DNA of 64,000 bases. Origin: an uncultured Clostridia bacterium (lineage in GTDB: Bacteria > Bacillota > Clostridia > UMGS1883). Made by a program: the position numbers and the translations under genes. The notes beneath the pieces are model-generated. The model was not told the DNA's origin. It did not search any database and saw only the letters and a list, made by a program, of their open reading frames with translations. Of this stretch, positions 13,329-40,205 are shown one piece after another (the first letter of the stretch is position 1; each line of letters starts with the position of its first letter). Where the stretch lies: NCBI GenBank assembly GCA_947589005.1, contig CANPZO010000002.1, forward strand, positions 7,713 to 71,712, given 5' to 3'.

Positions 13329-14213
13329 ATGTTGAAACAAATCAGATATTTTCACGCCGTGGTGCGTCTGGGCAGCTTCAGCGAGGCGGCGGAGCAATGT
13401 TACATATCGCAGTCCGCGATCTCTCAGCAGGTTCAGGCCCTGGAGCGGGAGCTGGGCGTAACGCTGCTGAAACGGGAGAACCGGCATTTTTCTCTGACGC
13501 CCGCCGGAGAGCATTTCTACCGGCAAAGCCTTTTATTTATGGCGGACTTTGACCGGCTGTGCAAGGAGACGAAACAAATCGCTCAGGGAGATGATTTTGT
13601 CCTGCGCGTCGGATATACCAAGGGATACGGCGGCGCGGAATTTCAGCGGGCGGTGGCGGAATTTACGGCGAAATACCCCGATGTTCCCATCGACATGAAA
13701 AACGGCAATCACGAGGACTTGTATGAACTACTGCGCGGTGGACAGGCGGATTTGGTGCTGAACGACCAGAGGCGCGCTTTTTCGGACGAGTACGTCAATA
13801 CCGTCCTGACCGTAATAAACTGCTATATCGAAATATCCGCCAGAAATCCCATTGCCGGGTTGGATTATGTCAATGTCAGCGATCTGCGGAACACTCCCTG
13901 TATTTTGGTCGCATCGAAAGAGCAGCAGGAAAACGAACGGTCCTATTATCATGAGATATATGGGATCGAGAGCCAATTTATATTCGCCGAAAATTTGGAT
14001 GAAGCACGGCTCATGGTCGTGAGTGGGAAGGGCTTTCTCCCCATTGAGGGAGGCGAGGCGCCGTCGCAGTTTGCCGAGACGATTGCGCGGCTTCCCCTTT
14101 GCCGAAACGGAAAACCCATAAGACGCAATTACTGCGCTTTTTGGAAGGTCAATAACTCCGGCTACTATATCGAGGAATTTGCCGAGATATTGAAAGCTCA
14201 GTTTAAGAAATAG
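13329..14213 (+). CDS. LysR-family transcriptional regulator
   Basis: N-terminal LysR HTH 'IRYFHAVVRLGSFSEAAEQCYISQSAISQQVQALERELGVTLL'. 294 aa. Confidence 0.85.
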   Translation: MLKQIRYFHAVVRLGSFSEAAEQCYISQSAISQQVQALERELGVTLLKRENRHFSLTPAGEHFYRQSLLFMADFDRLCKETKQIAQGDDFVLRVGYTKGYGGAEFQRAVAEFTAKYPDVPIDMKNGNHEDLYELLRGGQADLVLNDQRRAFSDEYVNTVLTVINCYIEISARNPIAGLDYVNVSDLRNTPCILVASKEQQENERSYYHEIYGIESQFIFAENLDEARLMVVSGKGFLPIEGGEAPSQFAETIARLPLCRNGKPIRRNYCAFWKVNNSGYYIEEFAEILKAQFKK

Positions 14214-14382
14214 AATATTTGATTCTGTCTAAGAGCCTGCCGGTGCAGGTTCTTTTTTCGTATTAGCTTTTGCTTATAGATAAGCCCCGAAAATCGAATT
14301 GCACTTTCCGACGGAAAGCTGTACAATATAAAGTGTAAATATGGCTTCGGAAGATAAAACAAATCATAAGGAGGACTTTATC

Positions 14383-14904
14383 ATGGATAAAAATCTGATC
14401 ATCTACTACTCCCGCAAAGGGAAAAACTACGTAAACGGCGGCATCAAAAATCTTGCCAAGGGCAACACGGAGATCGTGGCGGAGTTTATCCAAAAAGCAG
14501 TGGGCGGCGACCTTTTTCAGATCGAGACGGTAAAGGAATACGCAGCGGACTATTATGCCTGCACTGACGAGGCTAAGAAAGAACTGCGCGAACAGGCAAG
14601 ACCGGAGCTGAAAAAGTATCTGGACAGCATTGACTGTTACGACAACATTTTTGTTTGCGGCCCATGCTGGTGGGGAACTTTCCCGATGGCGGTGTTCACC
14701 CAGCTTGAAAGGCTGGATTTCACCGGCAAAAAGGTAATGGCCGTCATGACCCATGAGGGCAGCGGCCTCGGCTCCTGCGAGCGCGACCTGAAGAAAATCT
14801 GCGTGGGCGCGTCCTTTGGAAAAGGGCTTGCCATTCACGGCGCGGACGCCGCAAGGTCCGAAAGCACGGTTGCGGCATGGACGAAAAAGGCCGCCGCAAA
14901 TTGA
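14383..14904 (+). CDS. Flavodoxin-family protein (Flavodoxin_4-like), cytoplasmic
   Basis: RBS AAGGAGG before MDKNLIIYYS. Motifs 'LIIYYS...G.T' and 'FVCGPCWWGTFP'. Paralogous to the flavodoxin domains at 37768, 35687 and 38466. Confidence 0.8.
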   Translation: MDKNLIIYYSRKGKNYVNGGIKNLAKGNTEIVAEFIQKAVGGDLFQIETVKEYAADYYACTDEAKKELREQARPELKKYLDSIDCYDNIFVCGPCWWGTFPMAVFTQLERLDFTGKKVMAVMTHEGSGLGSCERDLKKICVGASFGKGLAIHGADAARSESTVAAWTKKAAAN

Positions 14905-14929
14905 TGATTTTAATAAGGAGGAAAGCAAA

Positions 14930-15784
14930 ATGATTCTTGACAGAAACGAAAACAAAGAAGTGGTTGTTCTTTTGGGCGCCGGCAGCATGGGGTGCGCCAT
15001 TGTCCGCCGCATTGCCGCGGGCAAAAAGATTTTGCTGGGCGACATCAGCGAAAAGGCGCTGGAGAGGGTTTCCCGTGAGTTCACCTACGGCGGGTACGAT
15101 GTGGAAACGCAGGCCGTAGACGCCTGTGATGAGCAGTCCATAAGGGCATTCGCGGAAAAGGCCGCCTCTCTCGGTCCGGTAATGTACTACATCCACACGG
15201 CGGGCGCGTCCCCCAGTCAGGCAAGCCCGGAACATATCATCAAGCTCGACTTGATCGGCACCTCCTACGCCATTGACGCTTTCGGTGAAGTGATGGCGCG
15301 GGGCGGCGCGGGCCTCATCGTTTCCAGCCAGACCGGGTATATGCCTCATACCCTCACTGCCGAGGACGAAGAAGCCCTTGCCATGACGCCGACTGATAAG
15401 CTCGCCTCCCTCCCTTGTCTCGACGGCTCGAAAACGCCTAATCAGGGCGCGGCCTATATCGTCTCCAAGCGGGTGAATCAGCTCCGCGTCCGCACGGCGG
15501 CGGCCACAACATGGGCGGATCGAGGTGCAAGGATTAACACCATAAGCCCCGGCATCATCGTGACGCTATTGGCCTATGACGAGTTCAATTCGCCGGGCAA
15601 CACCTATCAGAACATGATCGACTGCTCCGCCGTGGGCCGCGCGGGAACATCGGACGAGATCGCGGCGGCGGGCGCGTTTTTGCTGGGGACGGACGCCGGA
15701 TTTATCACGGGAACCGATTTGCTCATAGACGGCGGCGTGATCGCTTCTCTTAAAAGCGGGCGGTTCAATCTCAATATCAGGTAA
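14930..15784 (+). CDS. Short-chain dehydrogenase/reductase (SDR)
   Basis: RBS AAGGAGG. Rossmann 'VVVLLGAGSMGCAIVRRIA'. SDR catalytic region 'AAYIVSKRV'. Confidence 0.85.
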   Translation: MILDRNENKEVVVLLGAGSMGCAIVRRIAAGKKILLGDISEKALERVSREFTYGGYDVETQAVDACDEQSIRAFAEKAASLGPVMYYIHTAGASPSQASPEHIIKLDLIGTSYAIDAFGEVMARGGAGLIVSSQTGYMPHTLTAEDEEALAMTPTDKLASLPCLDGSKTPNQGAAYIVSKRVNQLRVRTAAATTWADRGARINTISPGIIVTLLAYDEFNSPGNTYQNMIDCSAVGRAGTSDEIAAAGAFLLGTDAGFITGTDLLIDGGVIASLKSGRFNLNIR

Positions 15785-15892
15785 GAAAGTCAGTGCGAAA
15801 ATGGAGCGGCGTGGACAGCCGTTCCGTTTTTTATGGCTCATTATCGTCGCCCTTAATTTCATTCAATTCATGAACCGTTTTCTTACCCGGCT

Positions 15893-15940
15893 TCAACCTT
15901 TTGGTTTAACCGTATAAACTTTTTTGAACTTCCCTTTTTT
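15893..15940 (+). promoter_or_regulatory. Conserved upstream element copy 1 (aaccttttggtt...ataaacttttttgaacttcc)
   Basis: One of three copies (also 33066..33112 and 37652..37725), each about 45-50 bp upstream of a start codon. Confidence 0.6.
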
Positions 15941-15991
15941 GATAAGCTGTTGTAAAATATGCTTAGGTAAAGTTTTCAGGGAAGGATGTGG

Positions 15992-17855
15992 AATGATGAA
16001 AAATATTATCGGAATGGTTCTGGGGCTGGCTGTCGTGCTGACTGCGTCAGCATGCAGCGCGGCGGAAAACGACAGCGGCAACGCTTCGAGCTTTATCCCC
16101 GACGCCAGACGGACTCAGACCATTTATTTTTGGGACGAGGGAAATGTCCCGGCCACCACAAGCTATACCGTCAACAACGGCAATTACTTTGATCCGCCCG
16201 AGTTCCGGCCGAATATGATTTTTTATCCGGCGGACGAGGGTACGCAGATAAAGGGCGCCGTGATGATAAATCCGGGCGGGGCTTTCATGTTCCGTGGCGA
16301 CAATGAAGGCGCTCCGGTGGCGAGAATGCTCAACCGTTACGGCTATCAGTGCTTTGTCGTCAATTACCGGCTCCGTCCCTATACCCAGGAGGAGGGCGCC
16401 CTCGACCTGGCGAGAGGCATAAGGTTCGTGCGGAAACACGCCGACATCTACGGCATCGACCCCCGGGATATAGCGTCAATCGGTTTCAGCGCCGGAGGAA
16501 TTCTGAGCGGAGAAGTGGCCATGAACTTTGACGGGCTTGTGAACGGGACCGCCATCGATAGTGGCTATGTCCCCGATGAACTGGATCAAGTGAGCGCCGA
16601 CTTGGCCGCGGAAGGGATGTTCTATTCATTTTACGGCAGGCTAAGCGTGGCGTCCCTCGACGTCGATAAGTTTCGGGAGGCCGAGCTGCCGCCAACCTAT
16701 GTCTGCTATGGCAGCAACGAGGTGTTCCGAGGTCAGATCGAAAATCACATTGTCGCCCTCCGCGAGGCGGGTATCCCTGTCGAGACTAATATGCTTGAGG
16801 GTCTGTACCACGGCTTTGCCTCGGGCGGCGGCTGGGGAGATGATTTTGACCGCTGGCTGAGCGGGGTTTTCGCGGAAAACGGCGGGGAGCTTACCGCTGA
16901 CTTTGCCTCGGCGGAACTGCGCGGCGGCGAGCTGACATACTCCCTCGACATAAAAGGGAACCCCGACAGAGCCGACATAATAGTCGCCTTTTACGACAGC
17001 GGCGGGACATTGGCGGGCGTGAACATAAATAAGCCGGAGGGCACGATAAACGCCGGTGGCGGAGGCACGCTAAAGCTGTTCCTGTGGGAGAAAGGGGCGC
17101 TCAGACCACTGACCGCGGCGAAAACCCTGCGTTTCGGCGGCGAACGGGAAACTCACCTCAACAATGTACTCGCCGGAGCGGACGGCAATATCCACTACAC
17201 CTACATTCTTCCGGCGGGGTACGACGAAAGCAAAACCTATCCCATGCTGATGACCTTGCCCGGCTGGAGCAATCTGTTCAATACCATCGAGACGACGCCC
17301 CTTACACAGAACCGTTACGCCGAGGGCAACGCGGCCGCGTGGACCGAGCTGGGAGGGGACTTCATCGTGGTTTCGCCCAGCCTCACCGACTGGGGCGCGA
17401 AATCGGCCCGTCAGACTGTTGAGCTTGCCGACTATTTTGTGGAAAACTTCCCCGTTGACCCAAAGCGGATATACGCGGCGGGCTTTTCCGCCGGAGGAGA
17501 GACTCTTTCGAGGGCGGTTGACATGAGGCCGGAGCTGTTCGCGGCCTATCTGCATATCTCGTCCCAGTGGGACGGCGGCTTTGAAAACGCGGCCTCCGCG
17601 CGTCTGCCGGTGTATATCTTCATAGCGGAGAACGACGAATACTACGGCTCGGCTCAGGCCCGCCGGGCATACGCTTCTCTTCGGGAAGCCTACGCCGCCG
17701 AGGGCATGACGGATGAGGAAATCGACGGGCTGCTGGTTCTGGACGTGCGGGACGATGAGTTCTTCAACGATCTGGGCATATACAGCTACCATGGCGGCGG
17801 AGGCGTCGCCGCAAACCAACAGGATATTATTTTGTGGATGTTAGGGAGGAATTAA
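15992..17855 (+). CDS. Secreted lipoprotein with two alpha/beta-hydrolase (esterase) domains separated by the recurrent YD..G.L/F.W..PL module
   Basis: Signal 'MMKNIIGMVLGLAVVLTASAC'. Domain 1 has 'NPGGAFMF' and the 'GFSAGG' nucleophile elbow. Domain 2 has 'GFSAGGETLS' (esterase / PHB-depolymerase-like). The middle carries 'AFYDSGGTLAGV...LFLWEKGALRPL'. Confidence 0.8.
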
Positions 17856-17857
17856 AA

Positions 17858-20800
17858 ATGAAAAAGCTTATTTCAATTCTTACGGCTGCGGCCCTTTTGA
17901 TTTGCTCAGTCGCCTGCGGCGCGGCGGGAGAACAGAACATGAGCGCCGCCGAAAAGGAGAGCTTCATAAGCGAAAATCTGGACGCCAGACACAGGCACCT
18001 GTCGGCCCTCGTAACCCTCAGCGCCAACATGGCCTACGACAAAATCGCCGGAGAGGTGGAGGCCGCTCTCAACGACGGCCTCACGCCCGTTGAGATAAAG
18101 GAGGCCATATATCACAGCGCGGCCTACTGCGGCTACACCCGGGCGGCGAGCGCCCTTGACGCGGCGGACGCGGCCCTTGAGGCCCTGGGCGCCGACACGG
18201 CTTACAGAACGCGGATAACCTCAAATGAGGAAAACCGCTACAATGACGGCCTGACGGTGCAGCGTTTCCTCTTTGGGCCGCAGATAGGCACAATAACCGA
18301 GGGCATGGCTCCCGCCATGAAGCTGCAAACCCTGTACCTTTCGGGAATATGCTTCGGCGACTTCTACAATCGCACCGGCCTCAGCCTTTACGACCGTGAG
18401 TTCCTGACCTTCTGCACCATAGTCGCCGACGGCAACTGTCAGGGTCAGCTCATGGGTCACGCCAATGGGAATTACGGCGTCGGACACTCCCCGGATATGC
18501 TTCGGGCGGCCATCCTCGCCAACGAGGAAGTGAACGGCCCTGAAAAGACCGCTCAGGCTCTGAACGTGATAGATACCGTGCCCGGCGCGGCGGCGGAGAA
18601 TGTGAAGCCGGAGCCGGAAGAAAAAACGCCCGTGACCCTTGACTACGAAAGCGACAGCGCCGAGCTTTTGGCCACAATGGAGCATTACAGGGCCGACGAC
18701 GCCGACGGCTTCATAGCCGCCAATCTGGACGGGCAGGCTCAAAACCTCGTCACAGAAGCGACGACAGCGGCAATAAACGGAGCCGCCGCTCCAACCTCCG
18801 ATAACAAGGCCCTGCAAAATCTCATCGACCTTGCGGTAATCGCCGCCGAGGGCGGACGGGAGGCCGAAGTCCCCGCCAAGGTGGCCGAGAGCATAAGCGC
18901 CGGAAACAGCGGCGACAGAATGTTGGCGGCGGCTCTGCTGGCCACGCCGTACAACGGCTTCCCCCGGACGCTGAACATCATGAGCGCGATTAATTCCGCC
19001 CTTGCCGATTTGCCCGAGCCGGAAAAGACCGTTGTCACCATGACAATAGGAAGTCCCACCATGACCGTGAACGGCGCCGAAGCTCCCATCGACGCTGAGG
19101 ACACCGTGCCCATGGTGACAAACGGACGCACCCTGCTGCCTGTACGGGCCTTCGTGGAGGCAATCGGCGGCAGCGTAAGCTGGGACGACGTGTCCCGTAC
19201 GGCGACCCTTACCTATAACGGAACCGAAATCAAGCTCACGATAGACTTGGCCGCCGCTATCCTTAACGGTGAGGAACGCACCCTTGACGTTGCCCCCGTC
19301 GTAGTAAACGGACGCACTATGCTGCCCATACGCTTCATCGCTGAGAGCTTCGGTTTTACGGTGCTGTGGAACGGAGAAACGCAGACCGTGACCGTAATCG
19401 ACGCGGACACAATAGATTACGTTTTCCCCAGAGGAATGGTAAATCCCGTCCCCAACTTCACCGGCGTGTCATATCTGAACTTCATGACCGGTTATGACGA
19501 AACAATGAAGATACCCTCCTTCGGGCTGGTGACCTTCGAGCCCTGCACAAGGACCGACTGGCACAGCCACGACGGCGGGCAGATACTCCTTGTGACCGAG
19601 GGAAGAGGGATATTCAAGGCCGAAGGAGAACCGGCCCGGTATATGCTCCCCGGCGACGTTATAATGATAGCTCCGGGGCAGAAGCACATCCACGCCGCCG
19701 CCGATGACAGTTGGTTCGCCCATATTGCGCTGAGCACCAATCCGGGCGCCGGTACCACCAACTGGTACGAAAAGGTCGGCGACGAGGAATACCAAACCTA
19801 CGTCGCCGAGGCGGAGGCCTCCGGCAGAACCGCCGAAGTGAGAAACACCGTGTTCCCCCGTGGCGAGGTTTACACCTCACAGGGCCTGATCGGTACGGCC
19901 TATAAAAACACCCTTGTTGAATATGAAAGCATCTGGAACTGTCCGGAGGTGGACAATTATACCCTTGAAGCCGGCGCGTCGGTAAGCCCCCACAGCCATC
20001 AGGGCGGTCAGATAATAGCCGTCACAAATGGCGGCGGCAGCTACACGGAAAACGGCGAAACAACAGAAATTAAGCCCGGTGACATTTTGACCGCTCAGCC
20101 CGGAGCAATTCACTCGATAACCGCCGGCGGAAGCGGGATTGCCTTCATAGCCGTGAACGGAAGTCCCGGCAGCGACGCTGTGAAATGGGAAAACGGCTCC
20201 GTTGCCCCGACCGAACAGTCCGCCGTGGCAAAAACCGAAGCGGGGCTTGTGCAGGGCGAGATCAGAAACGGCATATACACATATCTCGGCGTTCCATACG
20301 CCGAGGCGAAGGAGCGCTTCGTTCCGGCCGAAAAGGTGACCCCATGGGAAGGCGTGCGTCCGGCTCTCGAATACGGGCCAATGTCGCCCCAGGGCATGGT
20401 GCAGGGCGGCACGGACAACAACTGCCAGAATTTGAATATATGGACGCCGGCACTGGCCGACGGCGGTAAACGCCCGGTTATGGTGTGGCTCCACGGAGGC
20501 GGCTTTTCCTCCGGCACGGCCAACGAAACCACCACTGACGGCGAAAACCTCAGCCGTAAAGGCGACGTGGTCGTAGTTTCGGTCAATCACAGGCTGAACC
20601 TCATGGGACATCTTGACCTTTCGGCCTACGGCGACAAGTATAAATATTCCGCCAACGTGGGCATAGCCGACATAGTTGACTCCCTTGAATGGATAAGGGA
20701 CAATATCGAACAGTTCGGCGGCGACCCAAACAACGTGACCGTTTTTGGCGAGTCTGGTGGCGGCGCCAAGGTTCTGGCCCTGATGACCGCGCCCGAGGCA

Positions 20801-21691
20801 AAGGGCCTGTTCGATAAGGGCATTGTCGAAAGCGGCGCTACCGAGACAGTCGGCCCGGTGTTTACCTCCCTTGAGGCCAGCCGCAGGGTCACCGAGCTGA
20901 TGCTCGGCGAGCTCGGCATAACCCCCGACCGTATCGAGGAGCTGCAAACCGTTGATTATGACAGGCTCAACGAGGCCGGTAACGCGGCTCTTGCTCAGAC
21001 AGCTCAGGAGTTTAAGATACCCGCCGCTTTGGGCGCGGGCTACAGCATGGAATGGGAGCCGGTTTTGGACGGCGATTATATGCCCACCGACCCGGTGACC
21101 GCGGACTCCTTTGCCGAGGCGGGCAGAGATGTTCCTCTCCTGATAGGCACCAACCTCAACGAGTGGACGGTAATGGGTTCCATGTTCGGCGGCGGACAGC
21201 AGGATAACGCCAGCCTTGACGAGCGTATGCGTCAGACCTACGGCGACGACGCCCAGCGGGTAATGGAGGAGTTCGCCAAAGCCTATCCCAATGAGGAGCC
21301 GAAGAACGCCCTTTACATCGACACTCTCATAAGAATGCCCATACTTAAGATCATGTCTCACAAGGCCGACCAGAACGGCGCGCCGGTCTACTCCTACATT
21401 TTCAGCTGGGGAACGTCCTATCACACGGCGGAGATACCCTTTGTGTTCAACAATGTTGACAAGACCCAGGTCAGCGGCGACCCGGAAGAGGCCAGCAAGC
21501 TGTCCGAGGTGATGAGCCAGGCGTGGATAAACTTCGCCCGAACCGGTAACCCGGGCGGGAACGGAGTTCCAAGCTGGGAGCCGTATACGCGGAGCGGCGG
21601 TGCGGTGATGATTTTCGACAACGAGACCTATCTCACCCACAACCACGATAAGGAGCTGCTTGAGATACTGGCCCCTGATTATGAGTATTAA
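17858..21691 (+). CDS. Giant multi-domain secreted lipoprotein, domain order CMD(AhpD-like) x2, Cu-amine-oxidase-N x2, cupin x2, type-B carboxylesterase
   Basis: Lipoprotein signal 'MKKLISILTAAALLICSVAC'. CMD motifs 'IKEAIYHSAAYCGYTRA' and 'LLATPYNGFPRT'. Cu_amine_oxidN1 repeats 'MTIGSPTMTVNGAEAPID...LLPVRAFVEAIGGSVSWD'. Cupins 'WHSHDGGQILLVTEG' and 'SPHSHQGGQIIAVTNG'. Carboxylesterase has 'VWLHGGGF' and 'FGESGGG'. Confidence 0.8.
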   Translation: MKKLISILTAAALLICSVACGAAGEQNMSAAEKESFISENLDARHRHLSALVTLSANMAYDKIAGEVEAALNDGLTPVEIKEAIYHSAAYCGYTRAASALDAADAALEALGADTAYRTRITSNEENRYNDGLTVQRFLFGPQIGTITEGMAPAMKLQTLYLSGICFGDFYNRTGLSLYDREFLTFCTIVADGNCQGQLMGHANGNYGVGHSPDMLRAAILANEEVNGPEKTAQALNVIDTVPGAAAENVKPEPEEKTPVTLDYESDSAELLATMEHYRADDADGFIAANLDGQAQNLVTEATTAAINGAAAPTSDNKALQNLIDLAVIAAEGGREAEVPAKVAESISAGNSGDRMLAAALLATPYNGFPRTLNIMSAINSALADLPEPEKTVVTMTIGSPTMTVNGAEAPIDAEDTVPMVTNGRTLLPVRAFVEAIGGSVSWDDVSRTATLTYNGTEIKLTIDLAAAILNGEERTLDVAPVVVNGRTMLPIRFIAESFGFTVLWNGETQTVTVIDADTIDYVFPRGMVNPVPNFTGVSYLNFMTGYDETMKIPSFGLVTFEPCTRTDWHSHDGGQILLVTEGRGIFKAEGEPARYMLPGDVIMIAPGQKHIHAAADDSWFAHIALSTNPGAGTTNWYEKVGDEEYQTYVAEAEASGRTAEVRNTVFPRGEVYTSQGLIGTAYKNTLVEYESIWNCPEVDNYTLEAGASVSPHSHQGGQIIAVTNGGGSYTENGETTEIKPGDILTAQPGAIHSITAGGSGIAFIAVNGSPGSDAVKWENGSVAPTEQSAVAKTEAGLVQGEIRNGIYTYLGVPYAEAKERFVPAEKVTPWEGVRPALEYGPMSPQGMVQGGTDNNCQNLNIWTPALADGGKRPVMVWLHGGGFSSGTANETTTDGENLSRKGDVVVVSVNHRLNLMGHLDLSAYGDKYKYSANVGIADIVDSLEWIRDNIEQFGGDPNNVTVFGESGGGAKVLALMTAPEAKGLFDKGIVESGATETVGPVFTSLEASRRVTELMLGELGITPDRIEELQTVDYDRLNEAGNAALAQTAQEFKIPAALGAGYSMEWEPVLDGDYMPTDPVTADSFAEAGRDVPLLIGTNLNEWTVMGSMFGGGQQDNASLDERMRQTYGDDAQRVMEEFAKAYPNEEPKNALYIDTLIRMPILKIMSHKADQNGAPVYSYIFSWGTSYHTAEIPFVFNNVDKTQVSGDPEEASKLSEVMSQAWINFARTGNPGGNGVPSWEPYTRSGGAVMIFDNETYLTHNHDKELLEILAPDYEY

Positions 21692-24215: not shown

Positions 24216-24216
24216 A

Positions 24217-29956: not shown

Positions 29957-29957
29957 A

Positions 29958-30719: not shown

Positions 30720-30845
30720 AAATTTTATACATGGACTGCGCGATGGGCGCTTCCGGCGATATGCCGGCCGCTTGGCCCGAATTGCACTGGAACGCGAAAT
30801 CAGCCTTGAAGAGGCCGGACGGCCGCTGGAAAGCGAGAGTTAAAA
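30716..30845 (+). pseudogene. larC: LarC remnant: only about 20 N-terminal codons recognisable, the rest deleted or frameshifted
   Basis: GTGA overlap with the larB stop. 'VKILYMDCAMGASGDM' matches the canonical LarC N-terminus (M.ILY.DC..G.SGDM). The frame then collapses and the next gene starts at 30846. Confidence 0.5.
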
Positions 30846-31751
30846 ATGATTTGGAACGTTTTAAGGCGTGAGTTCGTCTACCTCTGGTACTACTTTGAGG
30901 TGCAGCTCCGTCAGATAGTGCCCTATTGGGCGCTGGGTATAGTGCTGGGCTCGGTAATCTCCGTGTTCGGCAAGGAAAAAATACACAAAATGGTGGTCGC
31001 AATTCAGGACAAGCACCTTGGTCTGTTCGGGCTGATACCGGCGGCTTTGCTGGGCATCGCCTCGCCCCTGTGTATGTACGGGACAATCCCGCTGGCGGCG
31101 TCCTTTTCCCAAAAGGGCCTGCGGGACGACTACCTGGCCGCCTTCATGATGTGCAGCGTGCTGTTAAATCCCCAGCTTCTCATCTACAGCGCGGCTCTGG
31201 GGCCCACGGCCCTGACGGTGCGCTTCGTGAGCTGCTTCCTCTGCGGAGTGGTGGCGGGACTGTTGATACGGTGCTTTTTTAAGGACAAAAGCTTCTTCAA
31301 CTTCGAGGGCTTTTCCGAGCGTGCCAGCCGTGATACCGACCCAAATATGCTCCTGCGGCTGCTTAAAAACATTGGCCGCAACATCAAGGCCACGGGCAAG
31401 TGGTTTTTGCTGGGCATATTCCTTACGGCGCTGTATCAAAGGTACGTCCCGCAGGAGGCTTTCGCCGCCCTTTTCGGCAAAAACGAAGGCTTCGGGGTGC
31501 TGATGGCGGCGACGATAGGCGTGCCGCTGTACGTCTGCGGCGGCGGGACGATACCGCTGCTCCAGGAATGGCTCATGAACGGCATGAGCATGGGCGCGGC
31601 GGCGTCATTTATGGTGACCGGCCCGGCCACGAAGATAACCAACCTTGGCGCGCTTAAAATCGTGCTTGGGATAAGGAATTTCATTCTCTACATAGCTTAT
31701 GTGATAGCGTTTTCGCTGGCGGCGGGACTGCTGGTGGATCTGATTGTTTAG
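30846..31751 (+). CDS. Predicted permease (DUF318/YraQ-like two-repeat permease family)
   Basis: Multiple TM helices. Motifs 'IASPLCMYGTIPLAASF' and 'GVPLYVCGGGTIPLL' typical of DUF318 permeases. Confidence 0.65.
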   Translation: MIWNVLRREFVYLWYYFEVQLRQIVPYWALGIVLGSVISVFGKEKIHKMVVAIQDKHLGLFGLIPAALLGIASPLCMYGTIPLAASFSQKGLRDDYLAAFMMCSVLLNPQLLIYSAALGPTALTVRFVSCFLCGVVAGLLIRCFFKDKSFFNFEGFSERASRDTDPNMLLRLLKNIGRNIKATGKWFLLGIFLTALYQRYVPQEAFAALFGKNEGFGVLMAATIGVPLYVCGGGTIPLLQEWLMNGMSMGAAASFMVTGPATKITNLGALKIVLGIRNFILYIAYVIAFSLAAGLLVDLIV

Positions 31752-31764
31752 GGAGGAGAAGCTC

Positions 31765-32661
31765 ATGCACAACCATCACCTTGAAACCTTCATTAGGGTT
31801 GCCGACAGCGGCAGCTTTTCAAAGGCCGCCGACGTCATGTTCATTTCCCCCACCGCGGTTATCAAGCAGATAGATTTGCTTGAGCAGGAGCTGGGGCTTA
31901 AGCTCATGGAGCGCAGCTCTCGGGGCGTTAGCCTCACCCCCGCCGGTGAGTCAGTGTATAACGACGCCAAGTACATGATACAGTATTCCCACGACTCCAT
32001 CGTCCGCGCTCAAAACGCCATGGAAAAAAAGGAAAAGGTCATACGCATCGGCGTGTCGCTAATGACCCCGGCCCAATTCGTGCTTTCGCTGTGGCCGAGG
32101 ATCAAGGAGATATGCCCGGGGCTGACGTTCCGTCTTGTGCCCTTTGACAACACTCCGGCCAACGCCCGGGAGATACTGAAAAACCTTGGCACCAACATCG
32201 ACATTGTGGCCGGCTGGTACGACGAGGATTTCCTCAGCAGCCGGGGCTGCGCGGCCCTTCGCCTTGAGGACGAGCCTATCTGCTGCGCGGTGAGCGTTAA
32301 CCACCGTCTCGCGGGCAATAAGCGGCTCAAGGTGGAGGACTTGGCGGGCGAAAACCTTATGCTCATCCGCCGGGGCTGGAACCGCTACACCGACGCTCTG
32401 CGGGAGCATTTGTGGATGAACTTTCCCGACCTCAAGGTGACCGACGTGCCTTTCTTCGACGTGAGCGTATTCAACCGCTGCGAGGAGGAGGGCGGCGTCC
32501 TCGTCGCTTTCGGCAAGTGGGAAAGCGTCCACCCGCTGCTCAAAATAATCCCCGTGGACTGGGGCTTTACCATTCCCTTCGGTATATTGCACTCGCCGAG
32601 GCCGTCAAGCGTGGTGAGCGAGTTTTTGAGCGCGGTCAAAGATGTGTGTTCAATTTCATAA
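31765..32661 (+). CDS. LysR-family transcriptional regulator
   Basis: RBS GGGAGGAG. HTH 'LETFIRVADSGSFSKAADVMFISPTAVIKQIDLLEQELGLKLM'. Confidence 0.85.
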   Translation: MHNHHLETFIRVADSGSFSKAADVMFISPTAVIKQIDLLEQELGLKLMERSSRGVSLTPAGESVYNDAKYMIQYSHDSIVRAQNAMEKKEKVIRIGVSLMTPAQFVLSLWPRIKEICPGLTFRLVPFDNTPANAREILKNLGTNIDIVAGWYDEDFLSSRGCAALRLEDEPICCAVSVNHRLAGNKRLKVEDLAGENLMLIRRGWNRYTDALREHLWMNFPDLKVTDVPFFDVSVFNRCEEEGGVLVAFGKWESVHPLLKIIPVDWGFTIPFGILHSPRPSSVVSEFLSAVKDVCSIS

Positions 32662-33065
32662 CCTTTAGGGCTGTAAAAAATAGTGCAGACCTGCGTCGTC
32701 ACAAAATCGGCATCGCCGTTTTGCGGGGGGTTGCCGCCTTCGGCGGCTTATATGTCCGTCTTTGTATGACGGCGGCTTGAAGGCAAGCCGCCCTACGCCC
32801 TACTGTAACAGTTACGTATAGGGCGGGCTGCCCTCAGCCCGCCGCGGCCCGCATGACGGGCTTTGCCCCGACGCAGACAGTGTGATTTTCGTTCGTAGTT
32901 CAATGGCATAAAATGAGAAAATTCGCTCGTAAGGGCGAATTTTCTACATTAATGCAACTATTTTATTTTTATAGACTAATATTACAACACTAAAATTTGC
33001 CTTAAATTAAGGAATTAAGCCCTTGAACGATCTGCGCCATTTTTTTACGGCCCCCTTTTTAGCTT

Positions 33066-33112
33066 AAACCTTTTGGTTCAAAGGCATAAACTTTTTTGCA
33101 CTTCCGTTTTGG
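33066..33112 (+). promoter_or_regulatory. Conserved upstream element copy 2, with extended -10 'tgctacaat' downstream
   Basis: 'aaaccttttggttcaaaggcataaacttttttgcacttccgttttgg' lies about 50 bp upstream of the Fe-ADH start. Confidence 0.6.
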
Positions 33113-33160
33113 TAAAAACCGTGCTACAATGAAATCAACAACAAAAGGGGGCAGTATAAT

Positions 33161-34330
33161 ATGGACAACTTCATTTTTGAAAACCGCACCAAGGTATATT
33201 TCGGCAAGGGCTGCGTCAAGGAGTTTCTTGTCTGCGAGGCGAAAAAATACGGCGGCAAGGTGATGCTGGCTTACGGCGGAGGCTCGATAAAAAGAAACGG
33301 CATCTACGACGAGATAACCTCCCTGCTCCGTGACGCCGATTTGGAGACGGTGGACTTCCCCGGCATCATGGCAAACCCCACCTATGAAAAGGTGCTGGAG
33401 GGTGCGCGTCTTGCCCGGGAGGAAAACGTCGGCCTCATCCTCGGAATTGGCGGAGGCTCGGTCATGGACTGCTGCAAGGCGATTTCTCTGGCGGCGGTCT
33501 ACGACGGCGATATATGGAAGGACTACTGGGCGAGGAACGGGGTCATCGGCTTTGAGCCCCTGCCTCTGGGCGTGGTCGTTACCGTGACCGGCACCGGCAG
33601 CGAAATGAACGGCGGGACCGTCATAACCAACGAGGCACTCAAGGTCAAAACGGGCCGGGATTATCCCGCCTGCAACCCCCGCTTTGCCCTTTTGGACCCG
33701 ACCTACACCTTCACGGTACCGCCTTTACAGATGGCCGCGGGCGGCTTTGACACCCTGAGCCATATAATGGAGATATATTTCAGCAAGCCAGACGAGGACA
33801 ATGTGTCCGACGATATTGCCGAGGCTTTGATGCGCGGGGTTATAAAAAACCTCCCCGCCGCCCTGAAGAACCCGGAGGACTACACCGCCCGCAGCAACCT
33901 TATGTGGCTGGCAACGATGGCGGAGAACCGCGTTATCAAGCTGGGGAAACGGACGGACTTCCAAGCCCATCAGATCGAGCATCAGCTTGGGGCCTACACC
34001 GACTGCAACCACGGCTGCGGTTTGGCGGTCATAACCCCGCCCTATTACCGGCGCATCTACGAGGCCGGCATATGCAAATTTGTGCGCTTCGCCACCAACG
34101 TGTGGGGTATCTCTACCGTGGGTAAAAATTCCGCCCAGGTGGCAAGGGAAGGCATCGACGCTTTGGAGAAATTCATCAGGGACATCGGCCTACCCTCAAG
34201 GCTCCGCGATATCGGCGTCGCCGAGGACGCGCCCCTTGACGAGATCGCCCAAAGCTGCAATATCTCACCCGGCAGCTACAGACAGCTCACCCACGAGGAG
34301 ATAGCGGAAATATTAAAAAGCAATTATTAA
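33161..34330 (+). CDS. Iron-containing alcohol dehydrogenase (Fe-ADH; butanol or propanediol dehydrogenase family)
   Basis: 'GGGSVMDCCKAISLAA' glycine-rich NAD motif. Metal-binding His motifs. 389 aa. Confidence 0.85.
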   Translation: MDNFIFENRTKVYFGKGCVKEFLVCEAKKYGGKVMLAYGGGSIKRNGIYDEITSLLRDADLETVDFPGIMANPTYEKVLEGARLAREENVGLILGIGGGSVMDCCKAISLAAVYDGDIWKDYWARNGVIGFEPLPLGVVVTVTGTGSEMNGGTVITNEALKVKTGRDYPACNPRFALLDPTYTFTVPPLQMAAGGFDTLSHIMEIYFSKPDEDNVSDDIAEALMRGVIKNLPAALKNPEDYTARSNLMWLATMAENRVIKLGKRTDFQAHQIEHQLGAYTDCNHGCGLAVITPPYYRRIYEAGICKFVRFATNVWGISTVGKNSAQVAREGIDALEKFIRDIGLPSRLRDIGVAEDAPLDEIAQSCNISPGSYRQLTHEEIAEILKSNY

Positions 34331-34512: not shown

Positions 34513-34558
34513 AGTATATAAAAGTTTAATATTTTAATATAAAATGGAGGTAATAAAA

Positions 34559-35686
34559 ATGAAAACACAGAGAACATTACTGGCTTTGGCTCTGGCCGGA
34601 GCACTGGGGGCCATGTCCCTTTCCGGCTGCACCGCTCAAAACGAAACCGCGAAGGAGCCTGAAACAAATCAAGAGGTACAGTCTCAGGCGGAAATCCCGG
34701 AGGGCGCTTTAGTGATCGCCGAGCAGGGCATTTTCTCCGCCGGCGGCACCACAATTACCAGCGAGGGCACATTTAATCCGGAGGATCAGTGGGAGGCCAC
34801 AGGCGCCGGGCAGACCCTTCACGCCGACCACGCAAACGTGCTCTACCAAATACCCGCCGATGAGACGGGCCTCCCCATGGTATTTCTCCACGGATACGGC
34901 CAGTCCCGTATGGGTTGGATGACCACTCCTGACGGACGGGAGGGCTGGTCGGATATGTTCCTGCGCAAGGGACACAGCGTATTCCTGATAGATGAGCCCC
35001 GGCGCGGCGAGGCCGGAATGACTACCGTAAGCGGAAATATCAGCACCACCACGCTTGACCAGCGTTGGTACACCCAGTTCCGTATCGGACGCTGGGAAAA
35101 CGGAAAGTCCGTTGTAAACGAGGGCTCTCAATTCCCCAACGACGATGAGTCCGTGGATCAGTTTTTCCGCCAAATGACGCCGGACACGGGCATGACCTCC
35201 GATATGGGCGGCGACTTTGATATGGAAACGGTGTCCAAGGCCGTTGCGGCCACCATTGACGAGGTTTACGAGCGCACCGGAAAGAATTCCATACTTGTGA
35301 CCCACTCTCAGGGCGGCGGCCCGGGCTGGGCGGCGGCCGCATATACCGACCACATAGCCGCCATCGTCGCCATTGAGCCCGGCGGAGCTCCGGCCGCGGA
35401 CAGCGCCGAATTTACGGCGGTGCTTGAAAAGAAGATACCCGTTACCATGTACTTTGGCGACTACATCAACAACGGCGACCCGGCCATTCAGGCCACGGCA
35501 ATGTGGCAGGGTATGCGCGGCGCCTGCTACGCCTTTGAGGAGGCTTACAATGCTCAGGGCGGCAACTGCACCGTTATCGATCTGCCAGAGGAGGGTATCA
35601 CCGGCAACGACCACTTCATGTTCCAGGATTTGAATAATGACGTGATCGCCGACCATATTCAAAATTGGATAGAGGAGAATGTAAAA

Positions 35687-35689
<3 letters not shown>
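34559..35689 (+). CDS. Secreted lipoprotein alpha/beta-hydrolase
   Basis: Signal and lipobox 'LGAMSLSGC'. Motifs 'MVFLHGYGQSRMGW' and 'LVTHSQGGGPGW' (GxSxG). Confidence 0.75.
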
Positions 35690-37391
<1,702 letters not shown>

Positions 37392-37651: not shown

Positions 37652-37725
37652 ACTGCTTAAACCAAAAGGTTTCTTTGAACCTTTTGGTTTGGCGGCATAA
37701 ACTTTTTTGCACTTCACTTTTTTGA
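37652..37725 (+). promoter_or_regulatory. Conserved upstream element copy 3, with a perfect 14-bp inverted duplication of the aacc-tttt-ggtt hairpin and extended -10 'tgataaaat'
   Basis: 'aaaccaaaaggtttctttgaaaccttttggtttggcggcataaacttttttgcacttcac'. Confidence 0.6.
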
Positions 37726-37767
37726 AAAAAAGTGATAAAATTAAATTAATCTAAGGAGGCAGAAGCT

Positions 37768-38250
37768 ATGGCGTCGTTGATAATATATTATTCTCAGGCG
37801 CGTGGGAATACGAGGCGCATCGCGGAAATGATACGTCAGGCCACGAACTATGACATCGCCGAAATAGAAACCGCGTTTCCGTATAAGGGAACTTATGAGG
37901 AAATCGTCGATCAGGGAAAGGCCGAGGTCAGCGAGGGCTATATGCCGGAGCTGAGGCCCTTGGGTAAAATACTTTCCGGCTATGACACCGTCATAATCGG
38001 CACGCCGACATGGTGGTACACCATGGCCCCCGCCGTCCGCGCCTTTCTCACGGAAAACGATTTCAGCGGAAAAACCGTTGTTCCGTTTCACACTCACGGC
38101 GGCTGGCCCGGACACACCCTTGACGACATGAAGGCGCTGTGCAAGGGGGCGAGCTTTAAAAACGAGATGTCCGTGCAGTTTGATTTTGAGGGCGGGAGCA
38201 CTCTCATAACGCCCGAGGATAAGCTGCGGGATTGGATAAAGAAGCTTTAA
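37768..38250 (+). CDS. Flavodoxin-family protein (cytoplasmic)
   Basis: RBS AAGGAGG. 'LIIYYSQARGNTRRIAE' and 'VIIGTPTWWYTMAP'. 160 aa. Confidence 0.8.
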   Translation: MASLIIYYSQARGNTRRIAEMIRQATNYDIAEIETAFPYKGTYEEIVDQGKAEVSEGYMPELRPLGKILSGYDTVIIGTPTWWYTMAPAVRAFLTENDFSGKTVVPFHTHGGWPGHTLDDMKALCKGASFKNEMSVQFDFEGGSTLITPEDKLRDWIKKL

Positions 38251-38259
38251 TAAGTTTAA

Positions 38260-38430
38260 GGCAATACCGCACAAAGACCGCTTTAAAGCTTTGCACCCGT
38301 CTTGCTTGCATCTTTTCCGACGTTTCTTACGAAAACTCCTTGAAATACGACAGGTATCCTATGGTCGTTTTCGTAATTCCGTCAAAAAATCTGCGGCGCA
38401 ATACGGGCACAATCTCTGTGCGGTATTGCC
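38260..38430. repeat. REP-like palindromic element (arms GGCAATACCGCACA / TGTGCGGTATTGCC) split by an about 140-bp insert; related hairpin at 63779..63811
   Basis: Arms at 38260-38273 and 38417-38430. The inner region carries a degenerate second copy. Confidence 0.55.
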
Positions 38431-38465
38431 TTAATATAACCACTATAACTACTGGAGGCGAGAAA

Positions 38466-40205
38466 ATGAAAAATCTCAAAAAAATCACGGCCTTTGCCCT
38501 GAGCCTTGCCGTACTCTGTCTCGGCTTCGGGCTGCTTGTCCGCACGCAAAAGACCACCACGGCCTACGCCGCGGACACCGGCTACGAGACCACTGACCCT
38601 GACGCTCCCGAGGTGCTGTTCACCTCGGAGATAACCTCCGAGTCGCTGCTCCGTATATATAAAGCCCTTGGCTTTGACGCGGAGGGCGAGGTGGCCGTCA
38701 AGATGTCCACCGGCGAGCCGCCAAACAGCAACTATCTCCGTCCCGAGCTGATAAAAGACCTTATCCAGGAGGTGGACGGCACCATCGTCGAGTGCAACAC
38801 CGCCTACGGCGGACGGCGCTCCAGCACCGCCATGCACCGGCAGGTGATAGAGGACCACGGCTTTCTCGACGTGGCAAAGGCCGTTGACATAATGGACGAA
38901 GACGGGGACATCACCATTCCCGTTCCCACGCCTGCCACAGGCGCGCGTTCGACCATAACCACCAACCGCGTGGGCGCCCATCTTACGAACTACGACAGCC
39001 TTATCTCGCTGGCCCACTTCAAGGGCCACGCCATGGCGGGATACGGCGGAGCTATCAAAAATATGTCAATCGGCATCGGCTCGGTGGCGGGCAAGTGCCT
39101 TATCCACACGGGCGGCAGATCCAGTACAAGTCCCTGGGGCGGCAACCAGAACGCCTTTCTTGAATCCATGGGCGACGCCACAAGCAGCGTGGTAAATCAG
39201 TTTGACGGAAAAGTCGTTTATATCAACGTGATGAACCGGTTGTCAATAGACTGCGACTGCGACGGCAACCCCTCCGAGCCGGATATGCACGACATCGGCA
39301 TACTGGCCTCCTATGACCCGGTGGCGCTGGATCAGGCTTGCCTTGACCTGATTTCTCAGGCCGACGGCAACACGAGATTTTTAAACCGTGTCAACGGTCA
39401 AAACGGCTTCCACACCCTTGAACACGCAGAGGAGATAGGTCTCGGCAGCCGAAGCTACCGCATACGGGATATCGACGCCGAGCCGGTGGCCGTCACCATG
39501 AGCTATGACAACGGACAGCTTACGGTTTCGGGCCTTGACGGCGAGGCGGCCCTCATCAGAGTTTCATATTCCGACGGCGCTTTGGCGGGAGTCGATATTT
39601 CCTCCGTTACCAACGGGACGCGGAACATGGAGGCCGAGGGCGGCGACAGGCTTTTCCTCTGGAACAGTCTCATGTCCATGCAGCCCCTGTGCCCGTCGGT
39701 GACCGTGCCCGACGGCGGGCCCAAGACCCTCGTGGTCTACTACTCCGCCACCAACACTACCGAGGGAGTGGCCGAAAAGATAGCCGCCTACACCGGCGCG
39801 GATATTTTCGAGATCACTCCGTCCGACCCCTACACCGACGACGACCTTGACTGGACGGACAATAACAGCCGCGTTGTGGCCGAGCATGACGACCCCGACG
39901 GCCGCCATGTGGAGCTTGAGACTACCGACGTTCCCGACTGGACAAGCTACGACACCGTATATATCGGCGCGCCCATATGGTGGGGCGAGTTCTCGTGGGT
40001 AATCGACGATTTTGTAAAGAACAACGATTTCACGGGTAAAACAGTTATACCTTTCTGCACCTCAATGTCCTCCGGTTTGGGCGACAGCGGGCGGCACGTC
40101 GCTGAAATGACGTCCTCCGGCAACTGGTTGGACGGCAAACGCTTTGGCACACGGGCAAGCGAAGCAGAGGTACAGGAATGGATAGACAGCTTGGGGCTTA
40201 ATTAA
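38466..40205 (+). CDS. Secreted or anchored protein: DUF362 domain plus recurrent YS.G.L/F.W..PL module plus C-terminal extracellular flavodoxin-like domain
   Basis: RBS GGAGGCGAG. Anchor 'ITAFALSLAVLCLGFGLLV'. DUF362 paralog of 26919 ('IVECNTAYGGRRS...DCDCDGNPSEPDMHDIG'). The C-terminal 145 aa are nearly identical to the 35687 flavodoxin domain. Confidence 0.75.
   Translation: MKNLKKITAFALSLAVLCLGFGLLVRTQKTTTAYAADTGYETTDPDAPEVLFTSEITSESLLRIYKALGFDAEGEVAVKMSTGEPPNSNYLRPELIKDLIQEVDGTIVECNTAYGGRRSSTAMHRQVIEDHGFLDVAKAVDIMDEDGDITIPVPTPATGARSTITTNRVGAHLTNYDSLISLAHFKGHAMAGYGGAIKNMSIGIGSVAGKCLIHTGGRSSTSPWGGNQNAFLESMGDATSSVVNQFDGKVVYINVMNRLSIDCDCDGNPSEPDMHDIGILASYDPVALDQACLDLISQADGNTRFLNRVNGQNGFHTLEHAEEIGLGSRSYRIRDIDAEPVAVTMSYDNGQLTVSGLDGEAALIRVSYSDGALAGVDISSVTNGTRNMEAEGGDRLFLWNSLMSMQPLCPSVTVPDGGPKTLVVYYSATNTTEGVAEKIAAYTGADIFEITPSDPYTDDDLDWTDNNSRVVAEHDDPDGRHVELETTDVPDWTSYDTVYIGAPIWWGEFSWVIDDFVKNNDFTGKTVIPFCTSMSSGLGDSGRHVAEMTSSGNWLDGKRFGTRASEAEVQEWIDSLGLN
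39770..40197 (+). repeat. Near-identical (about 99%) duplication of 36090..36520 (flavodoxin-like domain coding sequence)
   Basis: Direct comparison. The antisense ORFs 36270..36473 and 39947..40150 translate identically. Confidence 0.85.

Follow-up and report, generated by a model that had tools for sequence, protein, structure and literature searches.

An exported, LarA-related DUF362 protein and adjacent nickel-pincer cofactor genes in a gene island of an uncultured Clostridia bacterium

The 64-kb window analysed here, a stretch of contig CANPZO010000002.1 from an uncultured Clostridia bacterium, carries between positions 13329 and 40205 (window positions are used throughout) an interval of 22 tightly packed genes, 21 of which lie on the plus strand and one on the minus strand. 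A preliminary description had read this interval as a candidate cell-surface redox and ester-processing system made of secreted lipoproteins and cytoplasmic reductases, and when domains were called by Pfam and NCBIfam profile searches, every domain that it had named was reproduced with Pfam where it had been placed. The conserved core of the locus turned out to consist of DUF362, a permease and genes for a cofactor, nickel-pincer nucleotide (NPN), rather than of esterases. Flanked by the first DUF362 gene and the second LysR gene are five genes, namely those for the small membrane proteins sm1 and sm2, for LarE and LarB, and for an ArsP_1 permease, and all five had been overlooked. Intergenic gaps of 1-126 nt suggested that the genes from DUF362 to the permease form one operon, which is listed here together with the LysR gene behind it and the second DUF362 gene of the interval.

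26919-28352, plus strand: CuAO_N1-DUF362 protein with an export signal, its DUF362 domain at 27465-28352
28428-28781, plus strand: sm1, small membrane protein (117 aa) without Pfam or NCBIfam match, with an invariant MACF N-terminus and a FEH(V/I)WHGE motif
28786-29094, plus strand: sm2, small membrane protein (102 aa) without family match, with a homologue in locus L012
29165-29956, plus strand: LarE, which acts as sulfur transferase in making the nickel-pincer cofactor (346.8 bits with TIGR00268, whose cutoff is 150)
29958-30719, plus strand: LarB, which acts on nicotinic acid adenine dinucleotide (NaAD) as carboxylase/hydrolase in making the nickel-pincer cofactor (287.3 bits with NF033503, whose cutoff is 175)
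30846-31751, plus strand: ArsP_1-family permease (Pfam PF03773, E = 2e-39)
31765-32661, plus strand: second LysR-family regulator (Pfam), 13 nt downstream of the permease gene
38466-40205, plus strand: DUF362-linker-Flavodoxin_4 fusion with an export signal (DUF362 E = 4.8e-44, Flavodoxin_4 E = 7e-40), N-terminus MKNLKKITAFALSLAVLCLGFGLLV...AYA

Export signals, assigned by eye and with a simple heuristic (basic N-terminus, hydrophobic stretch, lipobox-like Cys), were found on seven distinct proteins of the interval, fewer than the "at least nine" secreted or lipid-anchored proteins counted before. Five of them have lipoprotein-type N-termini (starts 15993, 17858, 21888, 34559 and 35686; two of the lipoboxes are atypical), and in both DUF362 proteins (starts 26919 and 38466) AQA or AYA comes after a stretch that serves as signal or anchor. 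Three integral membrane proteins and a histidine kinase are encoded besides these seven.

For comparison, 80 genome loci encoding near relatives of the DUF362 domain (L003-L082) were searched with all window proteins, and further loci outside this set (L086, L091, L092, L094 and L096) were also inspected. By the heuristic, an export signal or lipobox was present in 84 of the 95 DUF362 open reading frames (ORFs) of the 80 loci and an export signal in 70 of their 115 Flavodoxin_4 ORFs; both domains are genuine and export-signalled in the interval as well, as had been claimed. Near relatives of the domain number more than 8,000 at 90% clustering, with 3,547 representatives at 50% clustering. The exact island sequence matched only two ENA metagenome contigs, and the closest genomes were rabbit-gut metagenome-assembled genomes labelled uncultured Monoglobus or Clostridia, with DUF362 identities of 80-90%.

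DUF362 and its likeness to LarA

Both DUF362 proteins matched PF04015 over the entire profile (positions 1-200 of 200), with 160.6 and 151.3 bits against a cutoff of 24. An AlphaFold2 model of the domain had a predicted local distance difference test score (pLDDT) of 81, and when this model was compared with the PDB by Foldseek, the 18 best matches were all LarA or LarA homologues with a probability of 1.0, while the next had E > 0.01. As modelled, the DUF362 domain has the two-domain alpha/beta fold of LarA. By sequence, DUF362 matched no solved structure: neither the protein nor its profile nor the motif segment, when searched against the PDB, recovered LarA. The link came only from fold comparison and profile-profile alignment. 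DUF362 and DUF2088/LarA are placed in one Pfam clan (PMC11770544), and DUF362 is a sister family of LarA, a relation that had gone unrecognised in the preliminary description.

The profile-profile alignment (hhalign), for which the LarA sequence was verified against PDB entry 5huq, gave 34% identity over 44 columns with E = 0.018, a value of low statistical confidence, and paired H143, K153 and H169 of the DUF362 domain (His325, Lys335 and His351 of the protein) with H174, K184 and H200 of LarA. On the same DUF362 stretch, Pfam Lar_N (PF09861) matched with E = 0.002 and 17.8 bits, below its gathering cutoff of 23.3, and a tblastn search of the window with LarA matched only the two DUF362 genes, with E values of 0.011 and 0.14. 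Weak as they are, these three signals point to the same stretch. Among 86 relatives, which share 40-78% identity with the window protein, equivalents of the His, Lys and His were present in 84, 84 and 86, respectively. The tethering lysine and the nickel-ligand histidine of LarA are, in its numbering, Lys184 and His200. The lysine tethers the cofactor by a thioamide bond, the histidine completes nickel coordination, and His108 and His174 form the catalytic acid/base pair (PMC12611868).

A DCDC motif (domain residues 217-220) was found in 82-84 of the 86 relatives, several other positions being equally invariant, and lies in a loop that AlphaFold modelled at low confidence (pLDDT < 50); binding of a metal, or redox activity of its two cysteines, is conceivable. 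DUF362 resembles LarA in its Pfam clan, in the conserved equivalents of His174, Lys184 and His200, and in the presence of larE and larB in its operon, but it belongs to PF04015 and not to PF09861, is about 130 residues shorter, has no His108 equivalent and carries the invariant DCDC. It further differs from LarA in its Sec, lipoprotein or Tat export signals, in its permease partner and in its fusion to Flavodoxin_4, and is known here by sequence and fold.

DUF362 domains were also seen within proteins of 1000-2200 aa (P0147, P0155, P0165, P0178 and P0194) that contain Peptidase_C11 (clostripain), GNAT or Gln_amidase (papain-fold glutamine deamidase) domains. Proteins combining DUF362 with the carbohydrate-binding module (CBM) CBM9 and dockerin have been reported (PMC5742341); no CBM or dockerin was found in the seven very large DUF362 proteins that were scanned.

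Cofactor genes, permease and export route

LarE of the window has a CxxC motif and a third Cys, as in the [4Fe-4S] type. In six other loci, lar genes were found inside the DUF362-permease pair or right beside it, in varied combinations:

L014: DUF362-LarB-permease
L015: DUF362-sm1-LarE-LarB-permease
L017: DUF362-LarC-permease
L022: DUF362-sm1-LarE-LarB-LarC-(AKR/4Fe-4S)-permease, AKR standing for aldo-keto reductase
L030: LarE-LarB-LarC-DUF362-permease
L086: DUF362, two small ORFs of sm1 and sm2 size in the same positions and without Pfam match, LarE-LarB-LarC-permease

Single lar genes of varied kind, wedged between otherwise adjacent DUF362 and permease genes, are hard to explain by chance. 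In our judgement, DUF362 probably binds NPN or a close derivative.

The sm1 gene lies directly 3' of DUF362 in 11 of the 80 loci. The protein forms a conserved family without Pfam match that was seen in the window and in L003, L006-L009, L012, L015, L016, L022 and L026, always directly after DUF362. A possible LarC remnant at 30623-30739 (tblastn, E = 5e-4) was rejected: it lies almost wholly inside larB in another frame, and the match falls on the part of the L030 query ORF that overlaps larB.

No LarA, NphT-like AKR or AKR/4Fe-4S gene was found in the window. Proteins of about 380-400 aa lie beside lar/DUF362 clusters elsewhere (L014 226-1383; L022 7298-8488 and 14107-15258; L030 368-1594; L096 10558-11700); those of L022, L030 and L096 have an AKR-like N-terminus and a 4Fe-4S ferredoxin-like C-terminus, and that of L014 has a weak AKR match only. 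These proteins may be relatives of NphT, an NPN-dependent aldo-keto reductase (Nat Chem 2026, PMC13524815). NphT is comparable to the protein proposed here as a non-LarA client found by lar-gene adjacency, with a His/Lys cofactor pair and a net intermolecular hydride transfer instead of a racemisation; unlike DUF362, it is a cytoplasmic TIM-barrel protein. AKR+4Fe-4S genes occur near some related loci only, and the AKR of the window was considered as an NphT-like NPN client and judged unlikely to be one, being a canonical relative of 2,5-diketogluconate reductase.

The ArsP_1 permease is a near-universal neighbour of Sec-type exported DUF362. A copy about 68% identical was found in 67 of the 80 loci, in 46 of them no more than 100 bp from DUF362 and often with overlapping genes, and 9 of the 13 loci without it end less than 1.5 kb from DUF362. 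Against the nearest NCBIfam models, which describe efflux transporters, the window permease scored 114.4 bits (cutoff 300, SO_0444) and 73.3 bits (cutoff 325, SaoE). It thus shares the PF03773 family with the ArsP, SO_0444 and SaoE permeases, whose characterised or curated members are efflux permeases, but falls below every curated equivalog cutoff, has DUF362 and lar genes as its neighbours and no ars or copper/metal-resistance operon context, and is paired with an exported LarA-like protein.

Nearly all DUF362 relatives carry lipoprotein or signal sequences of the Sec type. Classical twin-arginine (Tat) signals occur in a few representatives, for example MSGLTRRTFMGAFAG...LAGC, and the DUF362 protein of Selenomonas ruminantium plasmid pSRC1 begins with MKEKMTRRNFVKLAG...LPGC, with a sub-threshold Pfam TAT_signal match (18.2 bits against a cutoff of 22.7). 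The permease was missing from all three Tat-signal loci that have 8-9 kb of context (L092 from Selenomonas, L094 and L096), whereas of the 71 non-Tat loci in which it occurs or would find room on both sides, 67 carry it (Fisher p = 5e-4), a contrast that is suggestive only. Proteins that fold around their cofactor while still in the cytoplasm are typical clients of Tat export. The pattern fits a permease that supplies something which the Sec-exported apo-protein needs outside, the simplest candidate being the cofactor or a precursor; we regard a role of the permease in cofactor or metal delivery as doubtful.

Extracytoplasmic cofactor delivery is familiar from haem export in cytochrome c maturation and from flavin export for extracytosolic flavinylation, and Tat-exported variants need no transporter. 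What the island would have in common with such dedicated systems is a transporter encoded beside a Sec-exported, cofactor-needing protein, but the transporter family and the cofactor differ, and the island version is one that we infer throughout. LarA and NphT take up NPN on simple incubation in vitro (PMC13524815), and self-loading of an exported apo-enzyme is therefore plausible.

The tightness of the DUF362-permease pairing, with its often overlapping genes, can also be read in terms of uptake or metal(loid) handling, with DUF362 binding or converting something outside the cell and the permease moving its product, or a metal such as nickel, in the manner of a substrate-binding lipoprotein and its transporter or of arsenical and Cu/Zn efflux. 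The closest NCBIfam permease models are indeed metal efflux transporters, an NmlR/MerR-type regulator gene follows the permease in L014, and genes for a metal-sensing repressor and a P-type ATPase lie near DUF362 in L091 and L094. We nevertheless consider this alternative very unlikely: the permease reaches only 114 bits against an equivalog cutoff of 300 and does not sit in an ars operon, an enzyme rather than a binding protein is indicated by the LarA fold with its conserved residues of catalytic type, and Tat-type DUF362 proteins manage without the permease.

Flavodoxins, esterases and regulators of the island

The remaining features of the interval surround the DUF362 operon on both sides and include a 75-nt element that recurs in three places:

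13329-14213, plus strand: LysR-family regulator (Pfam HTH_1 E = 1e-24, LysR_substrate)
14383-14904, plus strand: cytoplasmic Flavodoxin_4 protein without signal peptide (PF12682 E = 3.6e-19), with an AAGGAGG ribosome-binding site 8 nt upstream
14930-15784, plus strand: cytoplasmic short-chain dehydrogenase/reductase (SDR; Pfam adh_short_C2, adh_short)
15892-15966, plus strand: 75-nt element, copy 1, upstream of the esterase operon (15993)
15993-17855, plus strand: lipoprotein with two alpha/beta-hydrolase domains (Pfam Abhydrolase_3/BD-FAE and Peptidase_S9/DLH), N-terminus MMKNIIGMVLGLAVVLTASAC
17858-21691, plus strand: 1277-aa lipoprotein with two CMD, Cu_amine_oxidN1 (CuAO_N1), two Cupin_2 and type-B carboxylesterase domains, N-terminus MKKLISILTAAALLICSVAC
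21888-23981, plus strand: lipoprotein with CE1 feruloyl-esterase-like and BD-FAE-type esterase domains (Pfam Esterase, BD-FAE)
24217-24609, minus strand: PNPOx-like protein of the flavin mononucleotide (FMN)-binding type (Pfam PNPOx_N E = 7e-11), the sole minus-strand gene of the interval
24772-25437, plus strand: OmpR-type response regulator (Pfam)
25454-26854, plus strand: HAMP/HisKA histidine kinase (Pfam), directly upstream of the DUF362 operon
33064-33138, plus strand: 75-nt element, copy 2, upstream of the Fe-ADH operon (33161)
33161-34330, plus strand: cytoplasmic iron-containing alcohol dehydrogenase (Fe-ADH; Pfam Fe-ADH, ADH_Fe_C)
34559-35689, plus strand: alpha/beta-hydrolase lipoprotein with a classic LSGC lipobox (PDB 4q34 E = 5e-58, esterase 1qlw E = 1e-38)
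35686-36528, plus strand: lipoprotein with half a CuAO_N1 repeat followed by Flavodoxin_4 (E = 1.5e-40)
36543-37391, plus strand: canonical, 2,5-diketogluconate reductase-like AKR (PDB 4mhb E = 2e-108, 1vp5 E = 1e-103)
37675-37749, plus strand: 75-nt element, copy 3, upstream of the flavodoxin and DUF362-Flavodoxin_4 genes (37768)
37768-38250, plus strand: cytoplasmic Flavodoxin_4 protein (PF12682 E = 3.5e-17)

The exported Flavodoxin_4 domain encoded at 35686-36528 aligned with PDB 3klb at E = 7e-32 with short gaps only, and 3klb binds FMN non-covalently (PMC11334425). Over 473 nt, the Flavodoxin_4 module at 36045-36517 is 99.2% identical (blastn) to that at 39722-40194 in the DUF362 fusion gene, which indicates a recent module exchange by duplication or gene conversion; together with the 71-87% DNA identity between the copies of the CuAO_N1 and DUF362 modules, this bears out the recombination of modules that had been proposed. 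Among the 50%-identity representatives, DUF362/Flavodoxin_4 fusions occurred in both orders. Two genes beside the full DUF362-larEBC-permease operon of L086 (13616-15790 and 15805-16753) encode exported CuAO_N1/cyclophilin-like/FGE-sulfatase/Flavodoxin_4 fusions, and L094 has a DUF362-cyclophilin-like fusion.

An extracytosolic Flavodoxin_4 subset that is flavinylated by ApbE and implicated in electron transfer has been reported from Firmicutes including Oscillospiraceae (mSystems 2024, PMC11334425), and exported Flavodoxin_4, part of a combination thought at first to be undescribed, is therefore not wholly new. The island resembles that system in having exported Flavodoxin_4 domains in a Firmicutes genome, but it has neither apbE nor the inserted loop nor the [ST]GA[ST] flavinylation motif, and the partners are DUF362 and the ArsP_1 permease instead of DUF4405 or FMN-bind proteins. 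With the motif absent from all four Flavodoxin_4 proteins of the interval and no apbE among the interval genes in Pfam scans, ApbE-type flavinylation was rejected here.

In S. ruminantium pSRC1, a 224-aa His-rich membrane protein (L092 10311-10985) with a sub-threshold DUF4405 match (E = 0.009) is encoded between the Tat-type DUF362 and a flavodoxin. DUF4405 proteins have been reported as transmembrane cytochromes linked to extracytosolic Flavodoxin_4.

A nickel-free flavin chain could be drawn from such neighbourhoods, in which electrons would reach DUF362, as terminal reductase, by way of exported Flavodoxin_4 from a conduit in the membrane, either the small membrane proteins or a DUF4405-like cytochrome, much as in the ApbE system, and the permease would export flavin. 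Firmicutes are known to employ extracytosolic Flavodoxin_4 proteins in electron transfer (PMC11334425), DUF362-Flavodoxin_4 fusions exist, the Selenomonas membrane protein has its weak DUF4405 match between DUF362 and flavodoxin, and Flavin_Reduct genes adjoin DUF362 in L086 and L094. Such a chain appears quite unlikely, however, considering that neither apbE nor the flavinylation motif was found in the interval, that sm2 has no histidine at all and sm1 only the two within its FEH(V/I)WHGE motif, neither of them matching a known family, and that the embedded lar genes and the LarA triad of DUF362 would be left unexplained.

One of the esterase domains is a close relative of a characterised feruloyl esterase. 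The N-terminal domain of the 21888-23981 protein (aa 160-400) matched PDB 1gkk, the XynY feruloyl esterase of C. thermocellum, at E = 5.9e-50 and 1jjf at E = 7.6e-17, and several "ferulic acid esterase" entries also matched. By this similarity it is likened to the CE1 feruloyl esterases XynY and XynZ of C. thermocellum, from which the protein differs as a lipoprotein with a second esterase domain and without xylanase, dockerin or CBM. The closeness to XynY makes "phenolic ester turnover", as suggested in the preliminary description, a reasonable context. The remaining hydrolases resemble carbohydrate esterases or carboxylesterases: the 15993-17855 protein had an esterase/lipase and acetyl-xylan esterases among its PDB matches, and the 1277-aa protein encoded at 17858-21691 matched COesterase (E = 6.5e-86), CuAO_N1 (8e-37), CMD (9e-21) and Cupin_2 (1.4e-18). 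For the latter the domain types agree with those given before, whereas the count of seven domains becomes six Pfam matches, because the CuAO_N1 domain is itself a double repeat.

The order of response regulator, kinase and DUF362 genes seen in the window was also found in L018 and L078. The 75-nt element follows the pattern AACCTTTTGGTT-N5-G.ATAAACTTTTTTG.ACTTC and contains the inverted repeat AACC-TTTT-GGTT; it gave three matches in the window against none expected. Copy 3 is preceded by an extra AACCAAAAGGTT. The arrangement suggests that the three element-bearing units may be under common control, possibly with the LysR proteins as controllers. Outside this organism, the exact pattern was found only in L012, upstream of an AKR/cupin operon, and conservation of the element beyond close relatives is therefore unproven.

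The set of Flavodoxin_4, CMD, cupin, AKR, SDR, alpha/beta-hydrolase and LysR genes is no chance grouping, for it is met again around DUF362 in numerous other genomes; its carriers include Clostridia, a plasmid of Selenomonas and two loci besides. Comparative genomics, one of the checks that the preliminary description had proposed, found the ensemble to recur. At least 20 of the 80 loci have cupin genes, and CMD, AKR and LysR genes occur in 8, 16 and 16, respectively. Around DUF362, the Selenomonas plasmid encodes flavodoxins, two AKRs, an alpha/beta-hydrolase, an SDR, CMD, cupin and LysR proteins, and L094 and L096 both encode Flavodoxin_4, CMD, cupin, AKR and LysR proteins, with an Fe-ADH in L094 and an SDR in L096. 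Gene content that is kept around DUF362 while its order is shuffled supports a functional ensemble. Among the six DUF362 matches in a plasmid collection, the Selenomonas context was informative and those of Roseburia and Parabacteroides were not.

Several further features were noted in the window. Just past the DUF362-Flavodoxin_4 gene lies a maltose/galactoside-type acetyltransferase gene with Mac and Hexapep domains (40375-41190, minus strand), of which L086 has a similar copy (12377-12964). The region 1165-2885 (minus strand), with a ParB-like gene and a replication/DnaD-type-like gene that has a low-complexity linker, may represent one border of an element that was integrated or came from a plasmid, and the GC content falls to 0.38 at 8001-10000. 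In an 845-aa ORF at 10034-12571, sigma-70 regions 2 and 4 occupy the N-terminus and some 650 more residues come after them, among these a DUF3108-like segment; for a sigma-factor fusion this length is unusual. An 887-aa ORF at 49692-52355 (minus strand) is TetM/EF-G-type GTPase-like by eye, with an extra C-terminal domain of about 170 residues.

Proposed mechanism and what weighs for and against it

The best explanation that we can offer, tentative as a whole, sees in the interval an accessory island, under regulation, of a gut Clostridium resembling Monoglobus. The island would handle plant-cell-wall esters and phenolics at the cell surface, and at its centre would stand an extracytoplasmic hydride-transfer enzyme that probably depends on NPN and has flavodoxins as partners. 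NPN would be made in the cytoplasm by LarB, LarE and a LarC encoded elsewhere. DUF362 would leave the cell unfolded via Sec, and because of this the permease, perhaps together with sm1 and sm2, is proposed as the carrier that would move the cofactor or a precursor outward, where apo-DUF362 would load it outside the membrane. The enzyme would then take a hydride from an extracellular substrate, or give one to it, without NAD(P)H; since one of the two catalytic histidines of LarA is kept, net oxidoreduction fits better than racemisation. The FMN of the fused or adjacent Flavodoxin_4 would serve as the redox partner that links the hydride step to quinones or phenolics, which the feruloyl- and acetyl-type esterases would free from plant fibre. 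Imported products would be processed by the cytoplasmic AKR, SDR, Fe-ADH and flavodoxins, under the control of the LysR regulators and the two-component system. Cofactor binding, cofactor export, the substrate and the flavodoxin partnership are all points that we infer, and that the whole interval acts as one pathway is a more questionable proposition.

A number of observations weigh against this explanation, chief among them the missing LarC, the weak sequence statistics and the DCDC motif. The sequence link to LarA is weak (hhalign E of about 0.02, Lar_N below its gathering score), the correspondence of the triad comes from the alignment and not from model coordinates, and DCDC has no LarA counterpart. 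The position of LarA His108 falls on Gly69 of the DUF362 domain, in a low-confidence part of the alignment, and DUF362, if it is an NPN enzyme, would therefore have a single catalytic histidine; LarA homologues with a single catalytic histidine exist, but their His174 is the one replaced (PMC12611868). No LarC was found in the 64-kb window, so NPN synthesis could not be completed with the genes seen there, 74 of the 80 DUF362-anchored loci have no lar gene up to a distance of 10 kb, and eight close LarB homologues were distributed over one DUF362 operon, three larE-larB(-larC) clusters and four orphan positions. Three lar-linked loci also encode AKR+4Fe-4S proteins, which are possible true NPN clients. 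Esterases were tied to DUF362 in 6 of the 80 loci, mostly in close relatives, the three Tat loci behind the permease contrast come from other lineages, and we know of no precedent for an ArsP_1 permease that exports NPN or any other cofactor. None of the eight sampled LarB homologues adjoins a LarA; with lar genes so scattered in these genomes, adjacency has low power either way, and the absence of lar genes near most DUF362 genes says little.

The few esterases beside DUF362, the scattered and often orphan lar genes and the missing LarC would also be expected of a loose neighbourhood, in which independent LysR-regulated stress, detoxification and fibre-esterase genes accumulated in variable regions, DUF362 is unrelated to NPN (binding, for example, a metal or Fe-S through DCDC), and LarE and LarB serve a LarA or AKR elsewhere. 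Gene order differs in each lineage, the cupin and CMD partners are mostly cytoplasmic in the other genomes of the 80-locus set, and published work links DUF362 to iron-sulfur proteins (PMC5742341). Against such a neighbourhood, which we judge unlikely, stand the recurrence of the same families in Clostridia, on a Negativicutes plasmid and in two more loci despite shuffling, the fact that six other loci have one or more of three different lar genes precisely between DUF362 and the permease, the LarA fold with its conserved His/Lys/His triad, and the one element common to three promoters of the interval. The surface redox and ester system first described for the interval is retained in part: the ensemble recurs around DUF362 and includes a feruloyl-esterase relative, but esterases are infrequent there and the cupin and CMD partners mostly lack export elsewhere.

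Extended beyond this organism, the explanation centred on an extracytoplasmic NPN enzyme would mean that gut Firmicutes deploy NPN outside the membrane, with Sec-type DUF362 loaded through the ArsP_1 permease, Tat-type DUF362 loaded inside, and FMN-containing Flavodoxin_4 completing an NAD(P)H-independent extracellular hydride and electron relay on plant compounds; in this general form we rate the idea as somewhat unlikely. To our knowledge, few users of nickel-pincer cofactors are known, namely the LarA racemases, one AKR family (2026) and an ornithine cyclodeaminase with the related NPAD form. If the idea is true, DUF362 would be the third protein scaffold for NPN and a long-sought client in genomes that have larBCE but no LarA, organometallic nickel chemistry would take place at the surface of abundant fibre-degrading gut bacteria, a cofactor export route would be implied, and redox enzymes would be workable where NAD(P)H is unavailable. 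Should the nickel link fail, the broadly conserved pairing of exported DUF362 with an ArsP_1 permease and exported flavodoxins would still be an undescribed module of gut Firmicutes. For DUF362, a large family of unknown function, the locus offers a concrete and testable candidate client of the nickel-pincer cofactor.

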